Shown: positions 2,432 through 47,458 of the stretch, in pieces
Numbering within the stretch: the first letter of the stretch is position 1
Layout: each line of letters starts with the position of its first letter
IMG/VR virus record: IMGVR_UViG_3300025671_000081
Coordinates: 1 to 55,016 of that record
Length of the DNA stretch: 55,016 nt
Reading direction: 5' to 3' (one strand)
Source of the DNA: a virus
Lineage: Duplodnaviria; Caudoviricetes
Position numbers and translations under genes: made by a program
Notes under the pieces: model-generated
What the model saw: the letters and a program-made list of their open reading frames with translations, nothing else
Databases searched by the model: none
What the model was told of the DNA's origin: nothing

Positions 2432-2441
2432 GGAAATATCG

Positions 2442-2636
2442 ATGCTTATTTTAACGCGCAATATCTCTCAGAAAATCAAAATCGGTGACGACGTAACCGT
2501 CACGGTGCTGGGTGTGAAGGGTAATCAGGTGCGCCTGGGTGTTAACGCTCCTAAGGAAGTTGCAGTACACCGTGAAGAGATTTTCGACCGCATCCAGCGC
2601 GAGAAGTCCGGCAAAGATGCCGAAGGAAATAATTAA
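2442..2636 (+). CDS. csrA: CsrA/RsmA translational regulator homolog
   Basis: [42 protein letters not shown]; ATG 2442 with AAGGA RBS. Confidence 0.95.
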
Positions 2637-2719
2637 GGCACCCGCCTCCGGCCCCCCGGCGCCGAGTCCTGCAGGAAGCAGGAAAGACCGGGAGAATTTA
2701 AAAGATAAGGACGACTGAC

Positions 2720-3229
2720 ATGAAATTAGCAAAACCAAACGAGCAAGACCTTAACGGCGCAATTGACATTGCTCGAATTATCGACGACCTGAGCAAAGGC
2801 TGGTTCCCGTCTGACGACGAAGGCGACCATGTTTTCGACATCATGGACAGCGCAGATTGCCGCAAGGCGTTGGATATTCTGATTGGCATTAGCGACGAAT
2901 GCAGCCTAATGCGCGCCGCCATGACCACGCTAGTTTTGTGCGATACGAACAATAAAGTCATCGACCCGAATATTGACCATGTCGATCAACATCCGGAAGT
3001 AAAAGAAGCGATGGCACTCAAAGAGCGTATCGACAGCTTCTTTACGCAGGAATTCACCGGCGGCATGAAGATCAAAAAAGGTGAAATAAAGGGCGATCAG
3101 GTTTATGAAATTGCTTCTGTCAATTTCGATGAGGCACTTGTAGCGTACAGCGTTGATTGGTCGGACGACCTCCAATGGGCTCGCTGGGAAAACGTTGAAC
3201 TTATCAAAGATCAGGCGGGTGCGGAATGA
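2720..3229 (+). CDS. hypothetical phage protein
   Basis: 169-aa ORF, AAGGA RBS, ATGA overlap with next gene. Confidence 0.75.
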   Translation: MKLAKPNEQDLNGAIDIARIIDDLSKGWFPSDDEGDHVFDIMDSADCRKALDILIGISDECSLMRAAMTTLVLCDTNNKVIDPNIDHVDQHPEVKEAMALKERIDSFFTQEFTGGMKIKKGEIKGDQVYEIASVNFDEALVAYSVDWSDDLQWARWENVELIKDQAGAE

Positions 3230-3510
3230 GCCAGAGTCCTCAGGAAATCATCGAAATGGCCGTTGCCAACGCCGGTAAAAAAGTGGTGAACCACATCGCG
3301 TGGATGCTGTTTATCGGATATTTGTCGATTGCTGCTATCGGCTGGTTCACCTCCGACAAGGATGACACAGACGGACATAAGCGCAGCAATATGGTTCTAC
3401 GTACCGACTACGGTACCGGCTGTCAGTATCTGGAATCGCACACAGGCGTATTAACACCGCGCATGAGCGCAGACGGAAAGCACACAGGGTGCAAGGCGGT
3501 GAGCAAATGA
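3226..3510 (+). CDS. hypothetical protein with one TM helix
   Basis: Hydrophobic segment then TDYGTGCQYL motif; 4-bp overlaps at both ends. Confidence 0.7.
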   Translation: MSQSPQEIIEMAVANAGKKVVNHIAWMLFIGYLSIAAIGWFTSDKDDTDGHKRSNMVLRTDYGTGCQYLESHTGVLTPRMSADGKHTGCKAVSK

Positions 3511-4193
3511 AAGTGAAACCGATGATTTTCAACCCTGACATGGCCTTGGCTTTACACGAAGACCGTAAGGGCCAGACGCGACGACCGGTTGATATACCTG
3601 ATGGCTGGGAATTAAAAAGCGCCGATCTATGCAAAATCACTGGCAAGCACCCCAAAAGTGGTAAGTGGGGTGTCTTGATTCGTCGCGAGACATTCGACGA
3701 AATCTACGAGCATGATCTTATTGCTGCCCCGGCTATGCCTGGAGACCTGATCTATGTGCGCGAAACCTTCCGGCTTTTTGATTCTTATGATGAGTGCGAC
3801 CACGCTGATTTCCCCTGCCCTTGTCCGGGGAATGGTGCGCCTATTTATTTTGCAAGCTGTCGTGATTCCGAGAGTAATTGGAAACCATCTATCCACATGC
3901 CGCGCTGGGCCAGCCGAACCACTCTGAAAGTGACCCGTGTCCGTGTTGAGCGCATTCAGGATATATCTGAAGACGATGCGATTGCCGAGGGATTCAAATA
4001 CACGGGGTGGAGACCGACTTACTCCGACCCAGATTCAGGTGGTGAATACAGCACAGCGAGCGACAAATTTGCAGATACGTGGATCTCAATCTACGGCGAC
4101 CATTGGGATAGCAACGGCTGGTGCTGGGTTATCGACTTTGAAGTTATCCACCAGAACGTAGACAGCTACCTTAAAAATCTGGAGGCAGCATGA
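3507..4193 (+). CDS. phage protein, ASCH/PUA-like family
   Basis: KPMIFN..M..A..RK.QTRR, PGD.IYVRET, WKPSIHMPRWASR..L.VT.VRVERIQDISE.DA.AEG. Confidence 0.8.
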   Translation: MKVKPMIFNPDMALALHEDRKGQTRRPVDIPDGWELKSADLCKITGKHPKSGKWGVLIRRETFDEIYEHDLIAAPAMPGDLIYVRETFRLFDSYDECDHADFPCPCPGNGAPIYFASCRDSESNWKPSIHMPRWASRTTLKVTRVRVERIQDISEDDAIAEGFKYTGWRPTYSDPDSGGEYSTASDKFADTWISIYGDHWDSNGWCWVIDFEVIHQNVDSYLKNLEAA

Positions 4194-4597
4194 GCCTTGA
4201 ACGATTAGCAATAGCCCAGGCATACCTAACGTCAGAGAAGAAGCGACTATTAAAGCTTCGAGAGGCAGAGCTAAGCAATTGCTACTTAATTGAATTCAGA
4301 GTTACCGGAAGATCAGATCACGCGGATTTTATAAATGACATTTCAGATCATGTCGGTGGAAGTCTCAGCCAGTTCTTTTGCTGCTCTGAGGTGGCGTATT
4401 TTTTATTCAAAGATGAAATGAATGACTTTGGCAGCGCAAACTACGAAGAACACATAGAAATGATTGGCTGTCCGCATTGCATACAAGCAAGAGAGATCAA
4501 GCACAAAACAAACGCCATATCTACAAAGCTGGGCCAGATAAGAGGCCAGATAACCATGGCCGGGAATAGACTAATCGGCGAGGTAATATCAGCATGA
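4190..4597 (+). CDS. hypothetical protein
   Basis: 135-aa coupled ORF with CPHC. Confidence 0.7.
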   Translation: MSLERLAIAQAYLTSEKKRLLKLREAELSNCYLIEFRVTGRSDHADFINDISDHVGGSLSQFFCCSEVAYFLFKDEMNDFGSANYEEHIEMIGCPHCIQAREIKHKTNAISTKLGQIRGQITMAGNRLIGEVISA

Positions 4598-4827
4598 CCT
4601 TTACTCCAAACTTCATAGGTGCAATGGGCTCCCTGCTGATACTTGGCATTGCCTTCTTTCTTGGCACCAATGGCCTGGCTTTCGCTGCACTGTCAATGCT
4701 GATTCTGGCTGTTGTTCTGGTTATCTGGCTCGTTATCAGTATCGGCATCTATTGCCTGGCACATAGACTGGCAACGCAGCTGGAAAGCGTTGCCCGTTTA
4801 GATCTGGGAGCGGACGATGAGAGCTGA
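4594..4827 (+). CDS. hypothetical membrane protein
   Basis: Two hydrophobic helices; overlaps neighbours. Confidence 0.65.
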   Translation: MTFTPNFIGAMGSLLILGIAFFLGTNGLAFAALSMLILAVVLVIWLVISIGIYCLAHRLATQLESVARLDLGADDES

Positions 4828-5917
4828 ATTTACTCCAGACAACCACTACGCTGGCCTGCTCGCTCAGGCTAAAGCGCTGTTTAGAATTACTCAGAGTCAG
4901 GAAGCGATCATTTCGACCCTGAGAAGCAAATTAACAGAGCTTGAATCACAGCTTGCCATGGTCGGCACGGCCGAGATTGAAGCGCAGCGCGCGGCCAATG
5001 AGCAACTGACCAATGAAGTGGAACGACTGACTGCGCATAACGCTAACCTACAGACCGCTGTAGATGCAGGGCTGCGTCAATCTTACATGCTGCGAGAATT
5101 CGCATCGAAAATCGGCATAAGTGACCGTGAAGACCCTCTTGAAACTCTGATAGGTGGCTGGACCCGGGCTGCAGAGGCCATGAGAAATTCACTCAATGAG
5201 CATAACCGAATGTGGAAAGAGGTTCTTCAGACCAGGCACGAGCACAGGCAGATGGCCGCACAAAATAAGCGTCTGATTAATTGCTTCACGACCTTAATGG
5301 GGCACAGTACGGGCGTTGCCGGGCTTCACTTAAATGGTGATGTGGCGCCATGGTCTGAGCTGACGGAAGGCGGAAGGTTTGAAGAGTGGCTTCTGCCCTT
5401 GTCAGAACCACGCGACCAGTCTATTGATGCGCTCGAAGCCCAGTGGCAAGCCGAAGCCATTCCCGGTTTTATCCGCGAAATGGGAGAGCGACTGCGCACC
5501 CAGGATAACCGTATTACTGCCGATCCTTTGTTCTGTGTGTTCCAAAAAAGAACCATTGTCGTGCCTGACGAATATGACCATGAATGTATTGAGTGGTTTT
5601 CAGGTGACGATCAGTGCACTGCTGAAGAAGAAGAAGCGGAGCGACTCGAAGAGTTACGAAGCGACATGGAAAGCGACTACTGGCATGAGGACACGATACC
5701 TCTCGATGGTAAAGAGTTTCGCCGTATCGCCGTTGCTGAGTATGACGAGTTCGTCACCGCATCATTTACCGAAGACGATGCTAACGACCATATCCGGATG
5801 AATGGCCACAACCTGAGAAAGCCATTCGTATTCGTTACCAGCCTGTACCGCACTCCGGAAATGATCGAGCTTCGCGAATGGCTGAAGGCTCAAGAAGCGG
5901 CTAAGGAACAACAATGA
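4817..5917 (+). CDS. Ead/Ea22-like modular early protein
   Basis: Coiled-coil N-terminus; C-terminal RTQDNRITADPLFCVFQKR...NGHNLRKPF..S.YR..EM..LR domain. Confidence 0.7.
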   Translation: MRAEFTPDNHYAGLLAQAKALFRITQSQEAIISTLRSKLTELESQLAMVGTAEIEAQRAANEQLTNEVERLTAHNANLQTAVDAGLRQSYMLREFASKIGISDREDPLETLIGGWTRAAEAMRNSLNEHNRMWKEVLQTRHEHRQMAAQNKRLINCFTTLMGHSTGVAGLHLNGDVAPWSELTEGGRFEEWLLPLSEPRDQSIDALEAQWQAEAIPGFIREMGERLRTQDNRITADPLFCVFQKRTIVVPDEYDHECIEWFSGDDQCTAEEEEAERLEELRSDMESDYWHEDTIPLDGKEFRRIAVAEYDEFVTASFTEDDANDHIRMNGHNLRKPFVFVTSLYRTPEMIELREWLKAQEAAKEQQ

Positions 5918-6090
5918 AGCAGCCAGAAACATTTATCGAAATGAAAGCTGAGTGCCCACACTGCGCGGCGCATATTGTGGTTTAAGCGGTAGATGAAACC
6001 GTAAACGGCCTTGAGGAAGTAGTTTGTGAAAACTGCAAAGAGCCGTTTTCTTACTGTTACCCTGGGAATATCTATGGGTTGGCGCAATAA
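5914..6090 (+). pseudogene. small zinc-ribbon gene with in-frame stop
   Basis: ATGA-coupled start; CPHC, TAA at 5983-5985, same frame continues through CENC to TAA 6088-6090 inside attC-1. Confidence 0.65.
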
Positions 6091-6141
6091 CCCAGATTTT
6101 AACGGGCGGCGAAGCCGTCCAATTTTAAATGTTTGTTATTT
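6085..6141 (-). repeat. attC-like site 1
   Basis: Minus strand TAACAAACATTTAAAA-TTGGACGGCTTCGCCGCCCG-TTAAAATCTGGGTTA. Confidence 0.88.
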
Positions 6142-6156
6142 TGATTAGGAGGCCAC

Positions 6157-6381
6157 ATGGCTCAATCACACGTGAAAGCAGGCGCGATTAAAGATTTTGT
6201 TAACTCAATGATCGCCGCGCTGGATGCTGGTTTTGTTGAGGGCAGCACACTAACACTGGCTCAGGTGCATGAAATCGCCCGGAACCACATCGAGGACACA
6301 CACGGCATAAAGACGAAGACCTTGCGTGAAGAATGGGGTGATGAGGTCGCGGAGCTGTGTGGCGCGCCTGAGTCAAAATAA
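6157..6381 (+). CDS. cassette A hypothetical protein
   Basis: AGGAGG RBS; stop codon in the R box of next site. Confidence 0.8.
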   Translation: MAQSHVKAGAIKDFVNSMIAALDAGFVEGSTLTLAQVHEIARNHIEDTHGIKTKTLREEWGDEVAELCGAPESK

Positions 6382-6432
6382 ATCAGAGCTTTGCAGCGAG
6401 CGAAGCGAGTCTGAAACAGTGAATTGTTATTT
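6376..6432 (-). repeat. attC-like site 2 (crossover triplet mutated)
   Basis: Minus strand TAACAATTCACTG..GACTCGCTTCGCTCGCTG..AGCTCTGATTTA; sister of site 9, which ends CTCTGGGTTA. Confidence 0.8.
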
Positions 6433-6446
6433 TTCTGGAGTTTGAG

Positions 6447-6653
6447 ATGGAAAGCATAATACAGATATTCAGGATGGATGATCTTAGCATTGAGACAAGA
6501 ATATCAATAATGAAAAAGCTCGGGACGGCAATCAATTATCAGTATGCTGCTAACTGTACAGAGGAACTGATAATCGAGCTTATTCTCGCACTGGCCCCTG
6601 AAAAAGAAGATGAGCTCCGTGCAGACGAGCATTACGGTCTTTACATGAAGTAA
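6447..6653 (+). CDS. cassette B hypothetical protein
   Basis: GGAG RBS; fills space between attC-2 and attC-3. Confidence 0.78.
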   Translation: MESIIQIFRMDDLSIETRISIMKKLGTAINYQYAANCTEELIIELILALAPEKEDELRADEHYGLYMK

Positions 6654-6705
6654 AAATAACCCGGCGCTTACGTGCCGAAGGTCAATTTAAAGCGCCTTGT
6701 TATTT
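6654..6705 (-). repeat. attC-like site 3
   Basis: Minus strand TAACAAGGCGCTTTAAATTGACCTTCGGCACGTAAGCGCCGGGTTA. Confidence 0.85.
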
Positions 6706-6898
6706 GGCGCGGGAGGATAAAGTAATTAAAACATACAAGATAAACCTGAAATTAGTCCGGAGTTTTTCTATCGGATTTAGTATTTTTTCGCCAACCCTTA
6801 ATAGGTTGTGCGTGGAGCTTCATTTCGGATGCTTTCACTTATGTTTTTGGAGCAAGGGAGACAAGCTTTTTGGCTTCAATAATTATTGGTGTGGCTAG
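6704..6898 (+). CDS. cassette C hypothetical protein (start codon probably lost)
   Basis: Open frame fills the cassette; GTA at 6722 sits where sister cassette D has ATG after the same GGAGGA. Confidence 0.55.
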   Translation: MAREDKVIKTYKINLKLVRSFSIGFSIFSPTLNRLCVELHFGCFHLCFWSKGDKLFGFNNYWCG

Positions 6899-6903
6899 AG
6901 ACC

Positions 6904-6957
6904 AAATAACCAAAAGCTAACGGGCGCGTAGCGTCCAATTTGAGCGCCTTGTTATTT
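6904..6957 (-). repeat. attC-like site 4
   Basis: Minus strand TAACAAGGCGCTCAAATTGGACGCTACGCGCCCGTTAGCTTTTGGTTA. Confidence 0.9.
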
Positions 6958-6973
6958 GGCGCGGGAGGAAAGA

Positions 6974-7165
6974 ATGAACCCATTTAAACGATTTTATTAC
7001 ATTGTTCGGATAGCTATCGCAATGACCAGACTAAAACGTTGGTCAGTGTCATGCAAAGACGAATTTAAGCGTGAACTATGCCGGACTTTATATCTTACGT
7101 CGTGTTTTACATACAACAGCGTTAAATACAGTTGGATGCCCAAGGCTACACCGGCGACAAAATAA
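6974..7165 (+). CDS. cassette D hypothetical protein
   Basis: GGAGGA RBS then ATG 6974; TAA stop in the R box. Confidence 0.75.
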   Translation: MNPFKRFYYIVRIAIAMTRLKRWSVSCKDEFKRELCRTLYLTSCFTYNSVKYSWMPKATPATK

Positions 7166-7214
7166 CGCCGGAATCAGGCGCGAGGCACGAGTCGCACTGA
7201 TCCGTGTGTTATTG
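7160..7214 (-). repeat. attC-like site 5 (anchor class)
   Basis: Minus strand TAACACACGGATCAGTGCGACTCGTGCCTCGCGCCTGATTCCGGCGTTA; body identical to site 10. Confidence 0.85.
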
Positions 7215-7271
7215 AATTAAACGAACTGCAGGAAGCAATAGCGCAGGCGCGTCAGGCGCTGGGAGATTGAT

Positions 7272-7478
7272 ATGGCAAAGAGTAAGCTAACGCCGCTGAA
7301 GAAGTTTGTAGAAGAGCGCTTCGGCGATACAGTACCTATGCGCACAGCGCAGCATTGGTGTCAGCACGGTCATGTTGCAGGCGCCCGTAAGATTAGGCGT
7401 CAGTGGTTTGTCGATCCTGATAAATTCGACAACACCACCGGCAACGAGCTGGCCGACAACATCCTGATGGCGTCCTAA
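7272..7478 (+). CDS. xis: excisionase (copy 1)
   Basis: 68-aa basic winged-helix-like protein (RT..HWC..G...GARKI.R.WFV) directly upstream of int. Confidence 0.85.
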   Translation: MAKSKLTPLKKFVEERFGDTVPMRTAQHWCQHGHVAGARKIRRQWFVDPDKFDNTTGNELADNILMAS

Positions 7479-7481
7479 TCC

Positions 7482-8609
7482 ATGGCACCGAGAGCACGCA
7501 AGCACAAGGGGTTGGAGCCGAATGTGTACCCGAACAAATCAGGCGGGCACACTTACTATCGCTACAAACACCCGCTCACCGGGGTGATGTACCCGCTTGG
7601 CAAGAACAAGGCGGAGGCCAATACGGCCGCCCGGATTCTGAACGCGAAGCTGCTGCAGGATGACGCCTGCATCATCGATAAAATCATGGGCACCGTCGGT
7701 ATCAGCATGGGCGCGCTTGTTGAGCGGTTCCGCGATGACCGATTGCCGGAAATGGGCCTGAAGGTCTCGACCCTAAAACTCATGGGATACCGCCTCAATC
7801 GTATTGTGTCTGACCTGGGCGACCGCGTTATCACGGAAATGACCACGAAAGACTGCGCGACCTGGCTGGATGATAACTTTGAATCAGATCCATACGTTAA
7901 ACACCGCGGTACTCTGATCGAGCTATTCCGGTATGCCGAGAACAAAGGGCTCCGTAACGGCAACGACAACCCAGCGGAAGGCACTTACCCTAACCGTAAG
8001 AAGAAGAAAAAAGCCCGCAAGCGCATGACGGTCGAGCAGTACCTTGCCATTCACGCCGCTGCGCCAGATTGGATGAAAATCGCAATGGAACTGGCCTTGA
8101 TTACACTACAGGGTCGTTCTGAGCTGATCAGAATGCGTTACGACGCTATCAAAGACGGCTACCTGTACGTTGTCCGTCAGAAAGTCGAGAGCCACGAACA
8201 CGCACGCCTCAGAATCAAAGTAACGCCAGAGATTGAGAGTATCGTTTCCCGATCCAGAGACGGTCTGGCCAGTCCCTACATCGTGCACCGTCGCCCGCAG
8301 CGGGTGAAAGAGAACAAAGACACCGATCACTGGACCCAGATTGCGCCTAATGAGTTCACCAAGCAGTTCCGGCTTATCCGCGACAGTCTGCCGGAGTTTA
8401 TCGGCATACCCAAAGAAGAACGCGGAGGTATTCACGAGGTCCGCGCATTAGGGTCGTGGCTGTATGAGCAAGCGGGATATGAGCGCGATTACGTTCAGCA
8501 TCTAATGGCTCACTCTGATGAGAAAATGACCGAATACTATCAGAGCGAGCATGAAGAAAAGTGGATCGACGTTAAAGCTGAACTCAGCCTGGCGTCAGTG
8601 TTTAAGTAA
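7482..8609 (+). CDS. int: lambda-type tyrosine integrase (copy 1)
   Basis: N-terminal arm-binding domain (YYRYKHPLTG..LG), catalytic GRSE, HEVR, AH, MTEYY. Confidence 0.95.
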   Translation: MAPRARKHKGLEPNVYPNKSGGHTYYRYKHPLTGVMYPLGKNKAEANTAARILNAKLLQDDACIIDKIMGTVGISMGALVERFRDDRLPEMGLKVSTLKLMGYRLNRIVSDLGDRVITEMTTKDCATWLDDNFESDPYVKHRGTLIELFRYAENKGLRNGNDNPAEGTYPNRKKKKKARKRMTVEQYLAIHAAAPDWMKIAMELALITLQGRSELIRMRYDAIKDGYLYVVRQKVESHEHARLRIKVTPEIESIVSRSRDGLASPYIVHRRPQRVKENKDTDHWTQIAPNEFTKQFRLIRDSLPEFIGIPKEERGGIHEVRALGSWLYEQAGYERDYVQHLMAHSDEKMTEYYQSEHEEKWIDVKAELSLASVFK

Positions 8610-8667
8610 CCCTAGTTTTAATGGGCGCGAGTAGTACGAGCGTCCACCATTTAAATGTTTGTTATTG
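8604..8667 (-). repeat. attC-like site 6
   Basis: Minus strand TAACAAACATTTAAATGGTGGACGCTCG..CGCGCCCATTAAAACTAGGGTTA; overlaps int stop codon. Confidence 0.85.
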
Positions 8668-8700
8668 CTCTATGAGCAGAAAATAACGGAGATACACGTC

Positions 8701-8853
8701 ATGAAGTGGCTAAGAGAACGAAAAAAAAGACAGCAAGAGCAGCTTGAATTGCTAAGAAGGATTGCTAAAAGTTTAAACGAAATAGAACAAAGTATTGATC
8801 GCAATAGCCGATATGGAAATGCCATTAAGGTAGTGCGGGCATCGAGATATTAG
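8701..8853 (+). CDS. cassette F small basic protein
   Basis: GGAG RBS, ATG 8701, 50 aa. Confidence 0.7.
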   Translation: MKWLRERKKRQQEQLELLRRIAKSLNEIEQSIDRNSRYGNAIKVVRASRY

Positions 8854-8858
8854 AGTAG

Positions 8859-8907
8859 CAATAACCACGCTATTCAGCGGTTTATCCGCTGCAATGCTTT
8901 GTTATGT
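8859..8907 (-). repeat. attC-like site 7 (very short)
   Basis: Minus strand TAACAAAGCATTGCAGCGGATAAACCGCTGAATAGCGTGGTTA; one extra base in left L arm. Confidence 0.82.
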
Positions 8908-8929
8908 GTGAATTACGGGAGATATTGTT

Positions 8930-9169
8930 ATGAGCCATCACGGGCATGGTTATAGAGTTTACCCTGATGATATGTCAGAACATACTCATGAAGAGTGGTC
9001 AAAAGCTGATAGCTGGATAAACGGTCTAGAGTTTAGAAAGGACTTTAATGAGGCTTTAGCTTTGGCAAAACTTGGAGCCGTTAATTGCCAATTTCCTTTC
9101 ATTGTAATGGAGATACCAATTGGCGGCAAAAGACAGAGATTTTGTGATTGCTGGGTGATAGAACCCTAA
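8930..9169 (+). CDS. cassette G hypothetical protein
   Basis: GGGAGA RBS; fills cassette. Confidence 0.78.
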   Translation: MSHHGHGYRVYPDDMSEHTHEEWSKADSWINGLEFRKDFNEALALAKLGAVNCQFPFIVMEIPIGGKRQRFCDCWVIEP

Positions 9170-9173
9170 TGAC

Positions 9174-9231
9174 ACATAACCCGGCGTTTAACTGTGAACG
9201 CCAGTGAATCATTTATAACGCTTTGTTATTC
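9174..9231 (-). repeat. attC-like site 8
   Basis: Near identical to sites 11 and 13 (+ strand TAACCCGGCGTTTAACTGTGAACGCCAGTGAATCATTTA.AACGC.TTGTTA). Confidence 0.9.
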
Positions 9232-9247
9232 GTTGGAGTTGAGTTAA

Positions 9248-9751
9248 ATGAGTGGATTGTTTGGAGAGCCAGTAGAGCGATCGCCGCACAAAAGCGTTGA
9301 GTGGTACACGCCGTCGTGGGTATTCGATGCTCTTGCAATCGACTTTGATCTGGATCCGTCTTCTCCACACGATATGGAAACGGCGGTACCAGCAAAGAAG
9401 AAGTTCACCATCTTTGATGATGGTCTTAAACAGGAGTGGTTCGGACGAGTGTGGCTGAATCCTCCTTATGGAAAAGATACACCGTTCTGGATCCGCAGAA
9501 TGATCGAACACGGTAATGGTATTGCACTGGTATTCAGCCGCACTGATGCGGCTTGGTGTCAGGAAGCAATGGCGGCATGTACTGCAATGCTTTTTGTTAG
9601 TGGACGGATCCAGTTCACACCAGGCAAAGAGAATCAGCACAAAAAGAGCCGTTGCGGTGCTGGTACCGTGCTCTTTGCTTTCGGAAAAGAGAGCGCCTGT
9701 GCGTTGAAGCGTATGAGCGATCGCGGAGTTTATTTAGAACGGAACGAATAA
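9248..9751 (+). CDS. cassette H phage DNA N6-adenine methyltransferase (Dam-type)
   Basis: EWYTP, FDLDP, DGLKQEW, VWLNPPY, FSRTD..W, GRIQF motifs. Confidence 0.9.
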   Translation: MSGLFGEPVERSPHKSVEWYTPSWVFDALAIDFDLDPSSPHDMETAVPAKKKFTIFDDGLKQEWFGRVWLNPPYGKDTPFWIRRMIEHGNGIALVFSRTDAAWCQEAMAACTAMLFVSGRIQFTPGKENQHKKSRCGAGTVLFAFGKESACALKRMSDRGVYLERNE

Positions 9752-9807
9752 CCCAGAGCTTTGCTGTGCGAGTGCAGCGAGCGTCTGTCAAAAGTGAATT
9801 GTTATTC
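9746..9807 (-). repeat. attC-like site 9
   Basis: Minus strand TAACAATTCACTTTTGACAGACGCTCGCTGCACTCGCACAGCAAAGCTCTGGGTTA. Confidence 0.85.
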
Positions 9808-9815
9808 TTACAGAG

Positions 9816-10016
9816 GTGATTATGAGCAGAGAGATGCTAACGAATCGTTTGGAAAAAATTGCCGGTAGTAACGTGATTATGTCAAACGACAAAGAGAAAG
9901 CGGCGCTGTGTAAGTGTGTCAACTATCTGGCCACGCAGCTACAGATTCTTGCGAATGACTTGGATGAAAGTCCTGCAAATGTTTTTAAGCTGGCGTCCGA
10001 GATACTGGAAGAATAA
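9816..10016 (+). CDS. cassette I hypothetical protein
   Basis: GAGGTG RBS (start may be ATG 9822); stop in R box. Confidence 0.75.
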   Translation: MIMSREMLTNRLEKIAGSNVIMSNDKEKAALCKCVNYLATQLQILANDLDESPANVFKLASEILEE

Positions 10017-10065
10017 CGCCGGAATCAGGCGCGAGGCACGAGTCGCACTGATCCGTGTGTTATTG
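10011..10065 (-). repeat. attC-like site 10 (anchor class)
   Basis: Body identical to site 5. Confidence 0.85.
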
Positions 10066-10122
10066 AATTAAACGAACTGCAGGAAGCAATACAGCAAGCG
10101 CGTCAGGCGCTGGGAGATTGAT

Positions 10123-10329
10123 ATGGCAAAGAAGAAGTTAACGCCGTTGAAGAAATTCGTAAAAGACAAGTTCGGCGACGACGTACCTATGCGAACCGCG
10201 CAACACTGGTGCCAGAATGGGCACTTGGCTGGAGCCCGAAAAGTAGGCCGGAAATGGTTTGTCGATGCAGAGCAGTTCGATAAAACTACCGGCAATGAAC
10301 TGGCCGACAGCATCCTGATGGCGTCTTAA
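10123..10329 (+). CDS. xis: excisionase (copy 2)
   Basis: 15 of 68 residues differ from copy 1 (hand count). Confidence 0.85.
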   Translation: MAKKKLTPLKKFVKDKFGDDVPMRTAQHWCQNGHLAGARKVGRKWFVDAEQFDKTTGNELADSILMAS

Positions 10330-10332
10330 TTC

Positions 10333-11460
10333 ATGGCACCAAGAGCGCGCAAGCATACAGGTCTGGAAGCGAATGTGTACCCGAACAAGTCCGGCGGGCA
10401 CACTTACTATCGCTACAAACACCCCCTTACCGGGGTGATGCACCCGCTTGGCAAGAACAAAGCCGAGGCCAACACGGCAGCCAGAATTCTGAACGCGAAG
10501 CTTTTGCAGGATGATGCGTGCGTTGTCGATAGAATCATGGGCACTGTTGGTATCAGCATGGCCGCTCTGGTTGAGCGGTTCCGCGACGACCGATTGCCGG
10601 AAATGAACCTCAAGCCGTCCACCCTCAAGCTAATGGGTTACCGACTGAATCGCATTGTGACCGACCTGGGCGACCGCGTTATCACGGAAATGACCACGAA
10701 AGACTGTGCGACCTGGCTGGATGATAACTTTGAATCAGATCCATACGTTAAGCACCGCGGCACTCTGATCGAGCTATTCCGGTATGCCGAGAACAAAGGG
10801 CTCCGTAACGGCAACGACAACCCAGCGGAAGGCACCTACCCTAACCGGAAGAAGAAGAAGAAAGCCCGTAAGCGCATGACGGTCGAGCAGTACCTTGCCA
10901 TTCACGCCGCTGCGCCAGATTGGATGAAAATCGCAATGGAACTGGCCTTGATTACACTACAGGGTCGTTCTGAGCTGATCAGAATGCGTTACGACGCTAT
11001 CAAAGACGGCTACCTGTACGTTGTCCGTCAGAAAGTCGAGAGCCACGAACACGCACGCCTCAGAATCAAAGTAACGCCAGAGATTGAGAGTATCGTTTCC
11101 CGATCCAGAGACGGTCTGGCCAGTCCCTACATCGTGCACCGTCGCCCGCAGCGGGTGAAAGAGAACAAAGACACCGATCACTGGACCCAGATTGCGCCTA
11201 ATGAGTTCACCAAGCAGTTTCGGCTTATCCGCGACAGACTGCCGGAGTTTATCGGCATACCCAAAGAGGAACGCGGCGGTATCCACGAAGTCCGTGCACT
11301 AGGGTCGTGGCTGTATGAGCAAGCGGGATATGAGCGTGATTACGTTCAGCACCTGATGGCTCACTCTGATGAGAAGATGACCGAATACTATCAGAGCGAG
11401 CATGAAGAAAAGTGGATCGACGTTAAAGCTGAACTCAGCCTGGCGTCGGTGTTTAAGTAA
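10333..11460 (+). CDS. int: lambda-type tyrosine integrase (copy 2)
   Basis: 11 of 375 residues differ from copy 1 (hand count); catalytic residues intact. Confidence 0.95.
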   Translation: MAPRARKHTGLEANVYPNKSGGHTYYRYKHPLTGVMHPLGKNKAEANTAARILNAKLLQDDACVVDRIMGTVGISMAALVERFRDDRLPEMNLKPSTLKLMGYRLNRIVTDLGDRVITEMTTKDCATWLDDNFESDPYVKHRGTLIELFRYAENKGLRNGNDNPAEGTYPNRKKKKKARKRMTVEQYLAIHAAAPDWMKIAMELALITLQGRSELIRMRYDAIKDGYLYVVRQKVESHEHARLRIKVTPEIESIVSRSRDGLASPYIVHRRPQRVKENKDTDHWTQIAPNEFTKQFRLIRDRLPEFIGIPKEERGGIHEVRALGSWLYEQAGYERDYVQHLMAHSDEKMTEYYQSEHEEKWIDVKAELSLASVFK

Positions 11461-11512
11461 CCCGGCGTTTAACTGTGAACGCCAGTGAATCATTTAGAAC
11501 GCATTGTTATGC
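11455..11512 (-). repeat. attC-like site 11
   Basis: Minus strand TAAC-AATGC-GTT(C)TAA...TTAAAC-GCCGG-GTTA, with the canonical extra C in L''. Confidence 0.9.
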
Positions 11513-11529
11513 GTTGGGAGGATACCGAA

Positions 11530-11853
11530 GTGACAGACCAAGAAAAAATAGTTTCAGCAATCAAGCATATACCTACGGATGAGATAGCTGCGCTGCCGTA
11601 CTTCAAGAACCGTGGGAAGAATTTCATAGCCCGTGGATTGGCGAATGATAAGACCGGGGAGCGTGAGCGCGCATTCAGTGACGTCATAAAGGAATTTCAC
11701 GAGGACGGCAACAGTCTCTGCCTTATTGTCGGTGAAGATGAAGCCGAATTGCGCGGGGCTTTTACCTTGTTTCAGTGGCTAACAACAAATGTCGGAAGCG
11801 TCGTTCTTGATAGGGCGTTACGGTCTACAGGAAAGAAGGTTGTTGACGCATAA
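11530..11853 (+). CDS. cassette J hypothetical protein
   Basis: GGGAGGA RBS then GTG 11530; stop in R box. Confidence 0.78.
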   Translation: MTDQEKIVSAIKHIPTDEIAALPYFKNRGKNFIARGLANDKTGERERAFSDVIKEFHEDGNSLCLIVGEDEAELRGAFTLFQWLTTNVGSVVLDRALRSTGKKVVDA

Positions 11854-11898
11854 CGCCGGAATCACGGGCCGCAGGTCCCGTGAAACCGTGTGTTATTG
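11848..11898 (-). repeat. attC-like site 12 (anchor class)
   Basis: Minus strand TAACACACGGTTTCACGGGACCTGCGGCCCGTGATTCCGGCGTTA. Confidence 0.85.
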
Positions 11899-11918
11899 AT
11901 GCTTTGGCGACTACTGTA

Positions 11919-12193
11919 TATTGCCAATGTATTGCCAATTATTTGCCAATGCAAACAGCAGGCACAAAAAAGACGCTTATAAGCGCCTGATTTGTAAGGG
12001 ATTTTTGGTAGGACTACCCAGATTCGAACTGGGGACCTCTACCATGTCAAGGTAGCCTTCCAAATCCGCTAAGCGTCTGTTTTATAAGGGATTTACCCCT
12101 TAAAACCGTGCGCAATGAGCGCAATAAACGCGAACCGCGCAACCTTTTAAAATCAATGACTTAGGTTTTGCGCAACCACTGGATATTGCCAAT
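11919..12193. other. attP region: arm-type repeats (TA)TTGCCAAT at 11919, 11930, 11942 and 12184; IHF-consensus site 12151-12163
   Basis: Repeats flank the tRNA-derived core; AATCAATGACTTA matches WATCAANNNNTTR. Confidence 0.8.
12006..12055 (-). other. attP core = 3' part of tRNA-Val(GAC), not a full tRNA
   Basis: Minus strand CTACC-TTGACAT-GGTAG anticodon arm, CCCAG-TTCGAAT-CTGGG T arm, ending CCTACCA; D arm and 5' acceptor strand absent. Confidence 0.9.
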
Positions 12194-12200
12194 AGGAATT

Positions 12201-12764
12201 ATGATGCCCAGACGAAAACAAAAACCAAAAACCCGCAAGAAGCCCATGCGCAGAACGGCACGTCAAGTGCAACGTCATGAAGCGTCGCGGCTCATAAAAG
12301 ACCTGGTCGCCGTGTACGTCTTCACCGGTAGCGGCTCAAAGCCTCGAGTATTCAACCGCACAACGTTCATAGAGGTTCCGGTTACCGATGAAATTGACTC
12401 CGCCCTAAAGAGTCACCCGTACCGATGGCGTATCAGCACTGCCCTTCTGCTTCGCGAAAAGAATGGCAAGCGGAAACTTATTAGTGAAGAGGTGTCTGCT
12501 CGCGATAAAAATGGAATCGCTCGAATCGAGTACGGAAACCTAGCGCCACAGGTTGTCGATAGTCACGTCGACCTCGTCTCAAGCTACTCCAACCAAGACT
12601 TAATAGTAACAGTGGGCTGGGTTGCTGATCCAAGCGGCAAAGAGCTCTCGCCAGAAGATGAAATGCGTCTCTATGAAGCAGCGAAGGCTTATGAAAACTT
12701 CATCGCTGCTTGGGAACTTCCTGCTGCTGAGGCTGCCGGCCAGTTAGTGGAAAAGGTAGCGTGA
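12201..12764 (+). CDS. hypothetical phage protein
   Basis: AGGA RBS before ATG 12201; long ORF. Confidence 0.7.
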   Translation: MMPRRKQKPKTRKKPMRRTARQVQRHEASRLIKDLVAVYVFTGSGSKPRVFNRTTFIEVPVTDEIDSALKSHPYRWRISTALLLREKNGKRKLISEEVSARDKNGIARIEYGNLAPQVVDSHVDLVSSYSNQDLIVTVGWVADPSGKELSPEDEMRLYEAAKAYENFIAAWELPAAEAAGQLVEKVA

Positions 12765-12796
12765 CGAATCCTGAAGAGGATGAAAAGCACAGGTAC

Positions 12797-12854
12797 ACAT
12801 AACCCGGCGTTTAACTGTGAACGCCAGTGAATCATTTATAACGCATTGTTATGC
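12797..12854 (-). repeat. attC-like site 13
   Basis: Near identical to sites 8 and 11. Confidence 0.9.
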
Positions 12855-12871
12855 GTTGGGAGGATATTTAA

Positions 12872-13075
12872 GTGACAGATGAAAATTCATTCGTGATTCG
12901 TCTTTTACACGAGAAAAACGAGTTGCATTGCAGAATGACACTACTAAATCGTTTCAATCATTCTGATAAATTTTTAGAGCTGAGCGAAGAAGAGCAAGTG
13001 CTACTACTGGAACAACACAGAGCAATGCAGAAATATTACGGGATACTCAACAAGCGCTGCGCCCTGTACGCATAA
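12872..13075 (+). CDS. cassette K small helical phage protein (crAss001_48-like)
   Basis: RL..EK.EL..R...L..F...DKF..L..EEQ.LL..Q..AM..Y..IL..R pattern. Confidence 0.75.
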   Translation: MTDENSFVIRLLHEKNELHCRMTLLNRFNHSDKFLELSEEEQVLLLEQHRAMQKYYGILNKRCALYA

Positions 13076-13127
13076 CGCCGGAGTCGCGCGTCGAGGTACG
13101 AGATCGCCGCGCACCCGTGTGTTATTT
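13070..13127 (-). repeat. attC-like site 14 (anchor class)
   Basis: Minus strand TAACACACGGGTGCGCGGCGATCTCGTACCTCGACGCGCGACTCCGGCGTTA. Confidence 0.82.
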
Positions 13128-13415
13128 CGGTATGACCATAACCTCTATATCCGGAGCTGCAACCCGGGCACGCTCAGGGAACCGACCTTCTTCAGGTTCG
13201 CATATCAGAACAATGGCCGGCATCCGCCCTGTCGATCGAGCGTAGTAAAGAGCCTGGCCTACAGCCTCCGCCCATTTATGGCACCAGTCGAACTCAACCG
13301 CGTGAGTAGGTGTGAGGCAGTCGACCCGGGTACGGTCTTCGAGCACGTATTCGGTTTTACCGCCCATATGTGGGCAATACGCGCCAACGTAGTCAGCTTC
13401 CATTGGTCTCGTCAT
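13122..13415 (-). CDS. small PD-(D/E)XK-like fold protein
   Basis: RVDCLT..HAVEFD..KWAEAVGQALYY motif; stop codon inside R'' of site 14. Confidence 0.65.
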   Translation of the reverse strand: MTRPMEADYVGAYCPHMGGKTEYVLEDRTRVDCLTPTHAVEFDWCHKWAEAVGQALYYARSTGRMPAIVLICEPEEGRFPERARVAAPDIEVMVIPK

Positions 13416-13578
13416 TTGCTGCAGATTGATTCATTGCAGCAATGTAGCCTAAACGGAATGACATCGCATCTTTAATGACAGGGTGATCGGGTTCGAGTTC
13501 GGCGATAGAAAACAGGGCCTTCTTACCGCAAGGCTTCTGAGTAATGATGAGACTTTCGGTGATTGCTATTACTTCCAT
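13393..13578 (-). CDS. hypothetical protein
   Basis: GGAAGAG upstream of ATG 13578; overlaps next gene. Confidence 0.5.
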   Translation of the reverse strand: MEVIAITESLIITQKPCGKKALFSIAELEPDHPVIKDAMSFRLGYIAAMNQSAANDETNGS

Positions 13579-13712
13579 GAGGTGCTCTTCCTTATTGATA
13601 AACAAAATATTAATGCATCCAATTGCAAGCGTCATCGGTAACAGAAGGTCAATTTATCCAATGCAGACAAAATGGCATACTTTGTCTAAATGGGAAAATT
13701 GAGGTTAAAGGT

Positions 13713-14159
13713 ATGCATGGTGTGGCCGGTCTGGGCAGTCGACTTCGAGAAGCGCGCAGGGAGGCGGGGCTATCAGCTGATTGGATGGTGCGCTTTCTTA
13801 ATGGGTACTTAGTATCAGCAGGTATGAAGCCCGTAGGCATACAGACCTATTACAGCTGGGAGCGAATAGGCACTCCCAGAGAAAGACCGGGGAAGTCCTA
13901 CCCTCACCCGCTGATTTATAAGCTGGTGCTGATCCCGCTGGGTGTGACTGGATACTGGCTGTTCAATGGGGATATGGGCGGCAAGATAGTAAAGTACAGA
14001 AAGGATCTTCCTCAGCTTGAGAAGATCAATTACGGCATCGAACAGAAATCAGGAGTAACGCTGCCTGATCGCTTGAGGATGGAATTTAATAGGGTTGAGC
14101 CGCTAATGAACAACGGCCAGCGTAGAGGGTTATTGGAAATGCTAAGGGCAACCAGATGA
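13713..14159 (+). CDS. XRE-like HTH DNA-binding protein
   Basis: LGSRLREARREAGLS..., YSWE.IG, LGVT.YWLFNG; GAGG RBS. Confidence 0.7.
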   Translation: MHGVAGLGSRLREARREAGLSADWMVRFLNGYLVSAGMKPVGIQTYYSWERIGTPRERPGKSYPHPLIYKLVLIPLGVTGYWLFNGDMGGKIVKYRKDLPQLEKINYGIEQKSGVTLPDRLRMEFNRVEPLMNNGQRRGLLEMLRATR

Positions 14160-14398
14160 TAGGCAGCTGGACATACGAAGAGGCGGCAACGCTGATACTG
14201 ACATGCTATGCACTCAGCTTCGTCATCGTAATTATGTCTGACAGTGTACCAACCAAGTGGCGAACGTGGACCACGGTGCACTGTGTTGCGCTGGCGGTAC
14301 CCATCGCAACACTGGCCACCTCAATTCTGGTGGCGATACCCGGCCTTATGATTCTTGGCCTGGTAATCGCAGCCACGTCCCGGGTTAAGCGTCGATAG
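14156..14398 (+). CDS. small membrane protein
   Basis: 2-3 hydrophobic helices; coupled to HTH gene. Confidence 0.6.
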   Translation: MIGSWTYEEAATLILTCYALSFVIVIMSDSVPTKWRTWTTVHCVALAVPIATLATSILVAIPGLMILGLVIAATSRVKRR

Positions 14399-17300
14399 CT
14401 TTCAGCTTCGGCGATACACGCTCAATCAAGTGATTCCTGCGCAGCTTCAGCAAGTCGATCTGACGTCGCTTTTCTTCTGCGCTGAGACTTCCGTTTTTCT
14501 CAATGGCCTTAATCCGGTTGCGGATCTCCTGTAGCCGTCGGTTCACCTGATTCATTAACTTGCGCATACCAAGCAGGTCGCGGTTTTCCCTCAAGGTGTC
14601 GGCGTACTCTTCCATGTCGCCCTCTTCTCTGTACTTCCTCATATCCGCATAGAGGCGGTCAGCCTTACGCAGTGAGTCATAGAAAAGCTCTGCGTCTTTT
14701 GTGTAAGACGGCCGAGAAGCATCACGATAGAAGCGTTTGATCGGCTGATACTCTGTCAGGAAAACAGACGGTTTTTCTGTATCGCTGAACTGACGAACAG
14801 CTACATCAGGAATGGCCGACGCCCATGCGCCAACCTGTCCGAGGTAGCCACCGATTAAGAAGTCCATCTGAACCGGTGACAGCGCGTAGTTTGAATCTTC
14901 GCCGAACACGCCCGTGGTCACCTTGCTCAGCATCTTGGCGACGCCGGTTGTGCCCTCATTGACCCGATTACTTTTGCTCAGTCGGGACTGCCCCATGGTT
15001 TCAATCTGACGCCCGGTGAACGAGTCCTTGTTCGCGTAGACATCCAGCGAAGGCTGAAACATCTGAGGCACAGCACTGAATGCAAACGTACCTGTCAGCA
15101 TGTGCCACATACGCTCACGGAACAGTTTGCCGGTAGCCTCGTCGTTCATGCCTTGCTCAAGTAATCGCTCAGTTACCGTTGCGATGGCGCCAACCTCAAA
15201 CGGTTTAGGGATGGTAATGACGTGATCCGTTTCCGGAATACGGAACCACCAGTAGGAATCCTTCAGCCAGTCTGGGGCTTTACGGTATTCCTCATCGTCC
15301 TGGTTATGTGCGAACAGAGTCATAGTGGCAACCGAAAGCGCGCCAACCACAGCAGAGAATCTGGCTGCCGCCTTTTTCTCTTCAATGCTGGTTTCGACAT
15401 TACCAACCCCAAGCATCTGCGCCACTACCTTCGTCGATGGCTTCACGCCAGAGCGATACAGCTTATCCAGGCCCTGCAAGCGAGCATTCAGGAATGGTAC
15501 AACGTCGATCAGAAAGCGAACCGCAGGCCACGCGCCATGCGCAGAGAAGTCCATCAGGTCGCGAGCCTGAAACGCTGCGTACATGGTCCCCTTTCCCGCA
15601 TCCTCAGCCTGCTTGAATGCAGCCGCACGATTCACGTTCTCAAGGCTGTTATTCACATCCATCCATCTATCCCAGCCAGCCTGTAAAGGCTTCAGCCCCA
15701 GAGACAGAAGCTGTTTAGGGTCCTTGATAACCTTTGCCCGGCGCATCTGGCCATCGATCTGATACCGGATAGAGTCAGCATCCTCGCCATAAACGTGACC
15801 GAAGCTGAACGCACCGCCAGACGCCATCAGCCGCGCTCGTTCATATCCGTGACGATCAAGCAGACCGAACGATTTGAGACCCTGCGCAATGTTGCTGGCC
15901 GCGTTCTTGCTCATGTCGGTAACCGCCACTGCACTCATAGAGTCCCGCAGAAGGTTGGCGACAACGAACTGAGGCGTACTGGTGGTCAGGTTGGTGAAAG
16001 TTCTTTTAAACCAGCGCATAGCCGACATGGCATAGCCGTTCATGCCGGTGTGGTTCAGACTGGTCAGCGACGAATAGACCATAGGGTCAGAAATGTCGTA
16101 CCACTCTTTCACGCCATTACGCAGTATGAAGGTGCTTTGCTTTTTGTCCCGAGCTGCCTCGACAGTTTTCTCTGCCGCGCCTAACTCCACCGCGTTATCA
16201 ATGCCCTGCTTCGCTGCCATGTTCTTCATGCTGGCATCAACCAGGTGGTGTAAGTTCATCAATGTGTTTTGCAGGAGGTCATTCAGGTTCTGAGTGCCAC
16301 CCTTCAGCTTCTTATAAGCCTGCTGGCGAGAAAGCCCGCCCATAACCCTTGGGCCTGTAGTGTCGTCGTTGTCTTCGTCCAGTCGGTAAAAGGGAACGTA
16401 AAACTCGTTCGCCCACATTTCCCGGTTTTCGCTGGTGATAATTCCTGACTCTTCAGCAATCGCCAGAACGTCGTCCCGGTACTGCTGGAACTCTTTGAAC
16501 ACCTTTTCATACAGAACGTTACGGTTACCGCCGTTTTTCAATTCGCCGCGGTTAAGCCCTTTCAGCGCCTGAATGTCTTCCGGAGTGAACAGATTTTCAC
16601 GACCTTCGGCCATCAGCTTTTCGCCGCGGTTACCGGCGATCCACCCCATGAAGCGCTCAATCTCAGCGGACGAGCCCAGTTTATTCAGGGTATAAATCAG
16701 GCCGTTAGTGTCTTTCTTCACATCGACGATACCGTCTTTGTTCATAAAGATACGGCCTGCGTTCATCATCGCAGACACAGCACCAGAGGCGGCATTGCTC
16801 ATTTTGGCGCGAGCCCAGGCAGAACGAGTGATGTTTTCTTCACTGGTGATATTGCCGTCAAGCAACTTCTTATCCAGCTCCATCAATCCAGCATAGCGAT
16901 CAACCAGACCCTGACGGACCTTTAAGCGCCAGCCGTCCATAACGCCGCGCACTTTTTCGGCGGCAGTTTCTACCGGGCCTTTCGGCCCGATTTTAGAGAG
17001 GGCTGATTTCTCGGCATCGTTAAGGCTGGAGTCTTCCGCAAGGTCGTCGGATAAGCGGGCGAGAGTTCCACCATCCTGACCAGACGAACCATTCTCACGA
17101 AGGTGACGACGCCCTTTTTCAATCAGCGCCAGAGTGTCTGTATCCGTCCAGTCGATATCAGGATTGAATTTGCGGATCAGGTCGCGCAGGGCAGCAATAG
17201 CACGCTGTACCAGCCCCATCTTTTTACCTTTCTCGGCAAGGTGGGCAATGTACTCCAGAACAGCAATACGACGCTCATCTGGGTTGTCATAGTCAAATGC

Positions 17301-47154: not shown

Positions 47155-47203
47155 TAATAACACACGCCAGCACGAGACAAAGCTCGTGTGTGCGGCGTTA
47201 TTG
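47155..47203 (+). repeat. solitary attC-like site 15 (anchor class)
   Basis: AATAACACACGCCAGCACGAGACAAAGCTCGTGTGTGCGGCGTTATT; GTTA overlaps stop of minus-strand ORF. Confidence 0.72.
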
Positions 47204-47458
47204 CTCTCCGCTCAAATCTTCCGCGTAAACCTGGATCATTCCTTTCATCTGAATCTCTTCCTTGAGCCAGTGGTAATGCTTCAGGTGCCACCAGTCGCCT
47301 GTTGTGATGAACTTCCGTCCACGCTCTACCCCTCTCAGCTTTAGCGGGGTATTGAGAAACGTCCATTCACTGCGTCTGAGATCCAGCTCCTTGGCCAGCT
47401 CTTGTGCCTGTTTCAGCTCGCCAGCGAGAATAAATAGCTTATCGTTAGTCACTTGCAC
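47198..47458 (-). CDS. hypothetical protein
   Basis: 86-aa ORF in nin-like operon. Confidence 0.65.
   Translation of the reverse strand: MQVTNDKLFILAGELKQAQELAKELDLRRSEWTFLNTPLKLRGVERGRKFITTGDWWHLKHYHWLKEEIQMKGMIQVYAEDLSGEQ

Follow-up and report, generated by a model that had tools for sequence, protein, structure and literature searches.

Here we describe an array of attC-like recombination sites in an IMG/VR virus record (IMGVR_UViG_3300025671_000081; 55,016 bases, rated complete), the whole of which is referred to below as the window. The array (positions 6085-13127) forms the distal end of the plus-strand gene arm of a temperate phage. This arm runs from the genes for RecT and RecE (phrog_561, phrog_7655) through the array to ~13.1 kb, beyond which nearly all long open reading frames (ORFs) are on the minus strand. 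The array consists of 14 imperfect palindromes (TAAC...TGTTA) of 43-58 nucleotides (nt) each, which lie within 7 kb and divide 13 gene units, and all plausible ORFs between the sites are on the plus strand. Judged by models of bacterial attC sites and by the junctions between units, the canonical attC top strand is the minus strand, antisense to every gene of the array.

The units encode a phage-type N6-adenine DNA methyltransferase (Dam), two copies of an excisionase-like gene followed by an integrase gene (xis-int), and ten further ORFs; the phage attachment site attP lies between sites 12 and 13 (Table 1). Two of the ten ORFs have family matches (phrog_5434 for 12168-12764; phrog_774 and PF21825 for 12872-13075), and no family match was found for the others. 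With 14 sites in 7 kb and no integron integrase IntI, the array is a CALIN (clustered attC sites without an integron integrase; at least two nearby attC sites and no intI), situated between the RecT/RecE genes and xis-int-attP. It is not a complete integron, in which intI, with attI and the promoter Pc, would adjoin the array.

The attC-like sites

As in attC sites, the conserved ends of the palindromes are AAC and GTT, and they are paired in most predicted folds. The head box is TAAC in 13 of the 14 sites and TAAA in site 2, the tail is TGTTAT in all 14, and head and tail are the sole invariant columns of the site alignment. The predicted folds contain a spacer and a loop and are weak, with energies of -3 to -13 kcal/mol. 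On the plus strand, the central loop of sites 1-3 is GAA, matching the GAA that Nivina et al. 2016 (PMC5027507) describe on the attC bottom strand. The original prediction read GCTTCGC hairpins on the minus strand as a general mark of the array; the motif is present there in sites 1 and 2 only and absent from the rest.

A covariance model from phage-borne sites (R2, with 8 window sites in its training set) recovers the 14 sites and one more at 47155-47203, with no other convincing match in the genome. This isolated site belongs to the same family and lies among minus-strand genes, ORF 47198-47458 (minus) stopping in its head box and ORF 46583-47140 (minus) starting 18 nt after it. Searches of the window with Rfam at gathering thresholds gave no family.

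Polarity of the sites

The integron integrase selects the bottom strand of attC, so that promoterless cassettes are inserted facing Pc. Polarity was assigned with models built from real attC sites, taken from 20 intI-adjacent arrays and from the array of G006, with orientation set by intI. G006 is a metagenome-assembled Oceanospirillaceae genome that holds a related prophage (locus L162), and 152 of 301 sampled genomes of its order encode IntI above the family cut-off. A strand-symmetric detector found 46 sites in the real arrays and 8 in reversed-sequence controls; dropping three A+T-rich, false-looking matches and one duplicate left a set of 42 sites.

The covariance model R1 was built from 29 of the real attC sites (those of at most 82 nt) with structure taken from individual folds, RNAalifold having given no consensus structure for the real-attC alignment; R1 is our own model, not that of IntegronFinder. 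A search of the whole window with filters off and E up to 10 gave 20 matches, of which 13 are array sites, all on the minus strand (8.8-24.2 bits, E 0.003-7.6, individually weak scores). Site 13 alone was also matched on the plus strand, with a weaker score. In the 21 real arrays, searched with E up to 1, all 128 matches (29 of them training sequences) fall on the strand predicted by intI. A covariance model had been named beforehand as the check that could overturn the predicted polarity, and R1 left it standing.

A position-weight classifier based on the 12 nt within each box, cross-validated with the locus of the test site left out, assigns 41 of the 42 real sites correctly. Read in gene sense, all 13 array sites tested and the 47-kb site are called bottom strand (-4.4 to -22.5 bits, the last being the score of the 47-kb site). 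R1 matches the 47-kb site on the plus strand, while the genes there are on the minus strand. As this isolated site is flipped and is again antisense to the local genes, polarity tracks gene direction and not absolute strand.

These assignments agree with the ends of the exchanged units and with the linkage of site bodies to their flanks, both described below. Because the three tests place the crossover in the TAAC box, the minus strand is the attC top strand, as the original prediction had it, and each site belongs to the plus-strand gene downstream of it.

Table 1. Positions, strands and supporting evidence of features in the window (R1, covariance model of real attC sites; R2, covariance model of phage-borne sites)
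Feature	Position	Strand	Evidence
Site 1	6088-6138	-	R1 16.9 bits; R2 47.9 bits; fold
Site 2, degenerate head box TAAA	6379-6429	-	Missed by R1; R2 17.5 bits; flanks complementary to those of neighbors
Site 3	6657-6702	-	R1 15.1 bits
Site 4, one cassette with ORF 6974-7165	6907-6954	-	R1 14.7 bits
Site 5, TAACGCCGG type, left end of xis-int unit 1	7163-7211	-	R1 19.6 bits; identical to site 10
Site 6	8607-8664	-	R1 8.8 bits; R2 31.9 bits (site outside R2 training set)
Site 7	8862-8904	-	Best R1 match, 24.2 bits, E 0.0028
Site 8, TAACCCGGCGTTTAAC type	9177-9228	-	R1 15.7 bits; R2 42.4 bits
Site 9	9749-9804	-	R1 13.1 bits; R2 36.4 bits
Site 10, same sequence as site 5, left end of xis-int unit 2	10014-10062	-	R1 20.2 bits
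Site 11	11458-11509	-	R1 12.5 bits; R2 39.6 bits
Site 12, anchor fixed to attP segment	11851-11895	-	R1 22.2 bits
Site 13	12800-12851	-	R1 16.1 bits on -, 9.3 bits on +
Site 14, where + and - gene arms converge	13073-13124	-	R1 21.9 bits
Isolated site of the same family, among - strand genes	47158-47200	+	R1 8.7 bits; R2 18.1 bits
xis-like gene (7272-7478) and lambda-type int (7482-8609), copy 1	7272-8609	+	phrog_629; Arm-DNA-bind_1 and Phage_integrase domains
xis-like gene and lambda-type int, copy 2	10123-11460	+	Domains; alignment to copy 1
Dam, phage-type N6-adenine DNA methyltransferase	9248-9751	+	PF05869, E 3e-15; stop TAA inside site 9 head box
Other cassette ORFs	6157-6381, 6447-6653, 6704-6898, 6974-7165, 8692-8853	+	ORF table
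Other cassette ORFs, continued	8930-9169, 9822-10016, 11485-11853, 12168-12764, 12872-13075	+	ORF table
attP	11907-12195	-	3' part of tRNA-Val(GAC)-like sequence at ~12005-12056, flanked by TATTGCCAAT-type repeats

Gene units and their junctions

A ribosome-binding motif follows each GTTAT within ~10-20 nt, and in 8 of the 13 ORFs, including both int genes, the stop TAA lies within the TAAC box that begins the next site, which bears out the prediction that stop codons often coincide with the complement of the R' GTTA. The 5 nt past the GTTA of one site are the reverse complement of the 5 nt before the TAAC of the next at 57 of 65 positions, and complementarity is perfect in 9 of the 13 pairs, a value reached by none of 200,000 permutations of the heads. 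In the control comparison, the head and tail of one and the same site match at 36 of 70 positions. Complementary cassette ends of this kind correspond to the relation between the first bases of a cassette and the inverse core of its own attC, and are expected if the units pass through circles. The poorest pairs are those of the two xis-int units and the attP unit (3, 3 and 2 of 5).

The ends of units shared between contexts fall in the same box. ORF 6974-7165 has a 90% identical relative in the viral locus L078, and homology with the cassette at 6907-7165 extends from the upstream TAAC to the next TAAC, beyond which the site bodies differ. Similarity between the two xis-int copies begins at AATAAC (sites 5 and 10) and ends at GTAACCC (sites 6 and 11), with 44-60 identical bases in aligned 60-base blocks; the sequences outside are unrelated, and the bodies of the downstream sites differ in type. 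Three different site bodies follow the 3' end of int. The body and tail of site 12, together with the attP arm, are common to the window and the locus pairs L162/L306 and L305/L307, in which they are preceded by three different cassettes, the last bases of each of these matching the tail of the preceding site. The body, tail and ribosome-binding site of site 3 recur in the prophage locus L162 behind a different upstream gene.

Flank linkage was compared over 16 nt on either side in 49 pairs of sites with bodies at least 85% similar, a set that covers the window and 17 other loci. In 14 pairs the downstream flank alone is kept, in none the upstream flank alone, and in 35 neither; upstream identity never exceeds 0.56. 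The site body thus moves with the downstream gene, in both the junctions and the flanks, and the attC body lies 5' of its ORF, as had been proposed. Contigs of four public runs contain no joints across cassettes; contigs lose rare variants and are hence uninformative on excision.

In the related phage locus L305 (1555-1675), the two halves of a site, head and tail, are ~100 nt apart with a start codon between them, as though the site had been split or an ORF had extended into it. A 47-nt sequence with identical box ends (starting ATAACCCGGCGGGGG) is identical in L018 and ~68 other viral loci; the 69 fetched loci come mostly from one sample series, and the sequence may be a site of the family or part of a conserved gene.

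Orientation in other phages and in bacterial integrons

Orientation was called from the longest ORF between consecutive sites, with a 1.3-fold margin between the strands. The 12 intervals in the window give 10 antisense and 2 ambiguous calls, and none that is co-oriented. In other viral loci (21 intervals, with L027 and L032 being near-duplicates), 10 are antisense, 10 ambiguous and 1 co-oriented, the last being an interval of only 121 nt. The real arrays give the opposite picture, with 21 co-oriented, 2 antisense and 3 ambiguous (26 intervals). The array does not consist of canonical cassettes, in which the ORF is on the attC top strand and its own attC comes after it. Since other viral contigs are likewise inverted and 21 of the 26 real intervals have the usual orientation, the inverted cassettes can fairly be described as a distinct class, in line with the original prediction, which had asked for this tabulation. 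The only ORF in ordinary orientation relative to an attC-like site is the minus-strand ORF 13122-13415, the stop of which lies inside the tail box of site 14.

Sites related to those of the window score up to 43.8 bits against R1 in other viral records. Sequence similarity to the array as such is limited: no similarity was found in the GenBank phage collection in near or distant search mode, the exact 33-nt site pattern is absent from the viral contigs, and tblastn of the cassette proteins against all fetched loci returned one shared small cassette only. A scan of the genome collection for TAACCCGGCG...TTGTTAT gave 120 stretches, nearly all of them chance matches by eye, with L162 as the sole clear relative. 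L142, a Competibacteraceae contig, looks attC-like.

G006 also contains remains of an integron. At L254 (G006:C31, 2941-3800), a shortened intI frame matches the IntI model at positions 1-131 and 273-314 only. After this frame come an attI-like sequence, which resembles the Shewanella-type attI given in Qi et al. 2023 (PMC9892861), and at least two cassettes, and attC sites lie beside the frame. L254 is a decaying integron in a genome bearing a related prophage.

Phage integrases, attP and the source of the recombinase

Both integrases of the array have 375 residues, with the arm-binding domain of lambda Int and a catalytic domain, and each gene is preceded by an excisionase-like gene (phrog_629). 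Their identity as integron integrases was considered and rejected on account of the arm-binding domain and the lack of an IntI match; they are lambda-type enzymes. The IntI family TIGR02249 has no match in the whole 55-kb record. Among the viral contigs, the integrase protein has only one relative, at 39% identity.

The phage integrases serve the attP, which lies at a tRNA-Val-like sequence. The anticodon was assigned by visual inspection, and ARAGORN detects no complete tRNA gene there. In G006, the related prophage at L162 ends with the same site 12 and arm repeats, joined to a complete tRNA gene. In four runs, metagenome contigs end or diverge at 12004-12056, and one of them continues into the remainder of a tRNA gene; ends at the tRNA core of attP fit host tRNA genes or integrated phage copies in the samples. 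The tRNA-like piece has no match in E. coli genomes.

The xis-int units (7161-8612 and 10012-11463) are mosaics. The site and leader are identical, while identity per 60-base block is 44-55 in xis and the 5' part of int and 54-60 in the 3' part of int, which suggests exchange within the gene as well as at the sites.

No tyrosine recombinase (PF00589) was found in five other array-bearing viral records, two of which are complete genomes with terminal repeats. As the window has no IntI and these five records have no PF00589, any recombinase acting on the sites must come from the host.

Expression of the array

A sigma-70 promoter scan of 2400-14500 found 4 promoter-like sites, compared with 13.2 in shuffled sequences, and none precedes most of the ORFs. 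As the units lack promoters of their own, the array is most likely expressed by read-through from an early promoter. The original prediction had assumed such early read-through; the single plus-strand arm and the scarcity of promoters speak for it, but the contigs from RNA libraries lend it little, since they are strandless and such libraries can hold DNA. Two of these runs span site 7 and one spans site 8, with more than 31 nt on both sides. Terminator-like patterns occur at 3 of the 14 sites on the plus strand (sites 1, 7 and 14) and at 5 on the minus strand, and intrinsic terminators (a G+C-rich stem followed by a T run) are not a feature of the array as a whole. The idea that inversion serves to avoid attenuating the sense transcript was rejected, the difference between 3 and 5 sites being too small.

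Other features of the record

A small zinc-ribbon-like ORF (CPHC...CENC, 5914-6088) adjoining the array is interrupted by an in-frame TAA at 5983-5985 and runs on to a TAA overlapping the head box of site 1. Possible explanations are a pseudogene, a variant arising in sequencing or assembly, or read-through. On the minus strand, 14385-23102 encodes an ORF of 2905 residues, the C-terminal 999 residues of which match the giant phage protein families phrog_18222 and phrog_9854. This C-terminal part also has a weak match to phrog_15406, a family named DNA methyltransferase.

Proposed mechanism and alternative explanations

We favor, as reasonably probable, the explanation that the array is an integron-type CALIN in which every hairpin goes with its downstream gene, a mirror image of the bacterial arrangement. 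A unit would then begin with C and the hairpin body, continue with GTTAT, ~4 variable nt, the ribosome-binding site and the ORF, and close with the 4 nt complementary to the variable ones, followed by ATAA. Crossover would take place in the TAAC box, adjoining the stop codon of the preceding gene, and the strand equivalent to the recombinogenic bottom strand of a bacterial attC would be the sense strand of the genes. A host integron integrase acting in trans may move such units between phage genomes by way of folded single-stranded sites.

Two consequences would follow for expression. Recombination uses the bottom strand, a choice which ensures that cassettes orient towards Pc (Nivina et al. 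2016, PMC5027507), and units captured by a bacterial integron would therefore face Pc backwards and be silent; the same authors report promoter-facing cassettes to be absent from sequenced integrons. Conversely, any bacterial cassettes that entered the phage array would be oriented antisense with respect to phage transcription. With silence at Pc on one side and antisense placement on the other, the phage units would form a separate cassette pool. The arrangement might also affect the rate of exchange. Where the genes run with the replication fork, a bottom strand located on the sense strand would occupy the lagging-strand template, and Loot et al. 2017 (PMC5371416) found that bottom strands on this template fold and excise more readily; in 25 of the 30 sedentary arrays they considered, the bottom strands are on the leading-strand template. 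More tentatively, and with less than even confidence, we suggest that temperate and apparently virulent phages maintain a mirror-image integron system, made up of phage-only cassettes of reverse polarity that would be shuffled by host integrases, insulated in expression and, through their placement on the lagging strand, shuffled fast.

Several observations weigh against an active integron-type array. The window sites are shorter (43-58 nt) than real attC sites and fold less regularly. The difference in fold stability between the strands, with the bottom strand more stable in 39 of 43 real sites, is almost lacking here: the plus strand is the more stable in 7 of the 14 window sites, the mean strand difference is -0.57 kcal/mol, and fold energy was discarded as a polarity criterion because it does not discriminate among them. 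The extra base in the L'' arm, predicted for the sites in general, is genuine in site 11 and its relatives, and in TAACCC-type sites the bulges are on the canonical arm; the predicted bulges of sites 5, 10 and 14 (TAACGCCGG type), in contrast, are on the opposite arm, and site 12, the fourth site of this type, has a symmetric loop, so that the feature is not uniform across the array. R1 fails to detect site 2, and E is below 0.05 for only 5 of the 13 sites that it does detect. Pairs in the flank comparison are mutually dependent, even though their direction is one-sided. The xis-int and attP units may be backbone segments duplicated by unequal site-specific exchange and not true cassettes. Finally, no integron integrase has been linked to this phage or its host, the host of the related prophage, G006, having a degraded intI only, and there is no sign of present-day recombination.

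Some of these features would suit fossil sites, left by a past integron-type assembly, with hairpins that have ceased to recombine and survive as elements between cistrons, for instance RNA hairpins that stabilize or process the polycistronic early transcript or that block converging antisense transcription. Weak and irregular folds with little strand asymmetry, a stop codon at the hairpin's 5' base in 8 of the 13 units with a ribosome-binding site ~10-20 nt later, and the terminator-like patterns on five sites (minus) and three sites (plus) are all compatible with this. We consider it unlikely on the grounds that flank complementarity is still perfect in 9 of the 13 units, that near-identical bodies in different contexts in several genomes, with sharp TAAC boundaries, indicate recent exchange, and that an RNA function leaves the invariant TAAC and TGTTAT boxes unexplained. 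A further alternative is ordinary homologous recombination, with no site-specific reaction, between conserved units of hairpin and ribosome-binding site in the intergenic regions, as described for the promoter-stem-loop modules of T4-type phages. In its favor, the hairpin body, tail and ribosome-binding region form one conserved block of ~80 nt before different ORFs (families D2 and D8). Such recombination explains neither the reverse-complementary 4-5 nt flanking each ORF, nor the exact ends of shared units in the TAAC box, nor the matches of the real-attC model on one strand only, and we regard it as very improbable.

The recombinase might also be a hairpin-acting enzyme of the host or phage other than IntI, in which case the resemblance to attC would reflect convergence or distant inheritance and the canonical polarity would not apply. 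Neither this record nor the related viral records encode IntI, scores against the real-attC model are modest and the bulge pattern is irregular, but the boxes, the TAACA start, the (G)GAC located ~17-20 nt in and the GAA loop are held in common with attC sites of the host order, and related viral sites reach the high R1 scores given above. The integrases of this phage, moreover, have an arm-binding domain and a separate attP, the five other array-bearing records lack a tyrosine recombinase altogether, and IntI1 recombined 5 of 6 attC sites from virulent phages (Qi et al. 2023, PMC9892861); such an enzyme is therefore improbable. That the polarity call is simply wrong, with the plus strand as the canonical top strand and ordinary cassettes of an ORF followed by its own attC, is suggested at first sight by the box-level layout, in which the stop lies in TAAC and the next gene follows GTTA, and by the predicted bulge of TAACGCCGG-type sites on the 5' arm of the plus strand. 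Against it are the 13 of 13 detected array sites that R1 places on the minus strand, with 128 of 128 control matches on the correct strand, the agreement of the classifier for 14 of 14 sites, and the unit boundaries and flank linkage, which put the crossover in the TAAC box. We consider an error of this kind extremely improbable.

If the mirror-image CALIN is real, a second cassette pool, owned by phages and separate in expression from the bacterial one, would draw on the same recombination chemistry. Phages would use a host enzyme to swap early genes, here the Dam methylase, the xis-int modules and many orphan genes, with likely functions in counter-defense and lysogeny. Shuffling would be fast during the short stay of the phage in the cell, the folding strand occupying the lagging-strand template, and bacterial cassettes, including those for anti-phage defense, would be silent in the phage array. 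Surveys that count co-oriented ORFs only would misread phage arrays. The system would also be a clean one in which to study what sets strand choice, as weak structural asymmetry is combined with sharply one-sided junctions.

Comparison with known systems

The closest bacterial counterparts are the chromosomal integron arrays of the host order, which have TAAC...GTTA boxes in common with the window, together with a top strand that starts with TAACA(A/C) and ends in GC-GTTA, a (G)GAC motif, a GCTTCGC/GAA loop, an unpaired spacer and complementary cassette ends. These real sites are longer (50-125 nt) than the window sites and fold in a regular pattern of 5 bp, a bulge, 3 bp, a bulge and 3 bp, the bulges being on the 5' arm of the top strand. 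Their bottom strand is clearly the more stable, they follow an ORF in 21 of 26 cases, and they lie beside intI and attI.

Reverse-oriented cassettes, such as those for toxin-antitoxin systems, are a minority in otherwise co-oriented bacterial arrays and carry their own promoters. They resemble the units described here in having an ORF antisense to the attC top strand; in the phage, instead, the whole array is inverted, as are related phage arrays, and no promoters are predicted for most ORFs. In T4-type phages, promoter-stem-loop modules flank mobile genes and are thought to act through homologous recombination. Conserved intergenic hairpins among small early accessory genes, with content shuffled between relatives, are common to these modules and the array, but the modules have no attC boxes and no complementary cassette ends.

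Phage-borne attC clusters have been published before. A full-text literature search, judged by title and abstract, returned no paper that describes phage cassette arrays of reverse polarity. Qi et al. 2023 (PMC9892861) describe 17 CALINs in phages, with arrays having 'the typical structure' of bacterial ones. Their CALINs and the present array are alike in having attC-type sites between small ORFs with no IntI in the phage, in including a DNA methyltransferase cassette, and in the idea that the host supplies IntI. They differ in that here there are 14 sites and all genes are inverted, antisense genes not being mentioned in the published description of the CALINs as far as it was consulted, and in that the present array, with xis-int units and attP among its parts, occupies a temperate phage's recombination and lysogeny arm.

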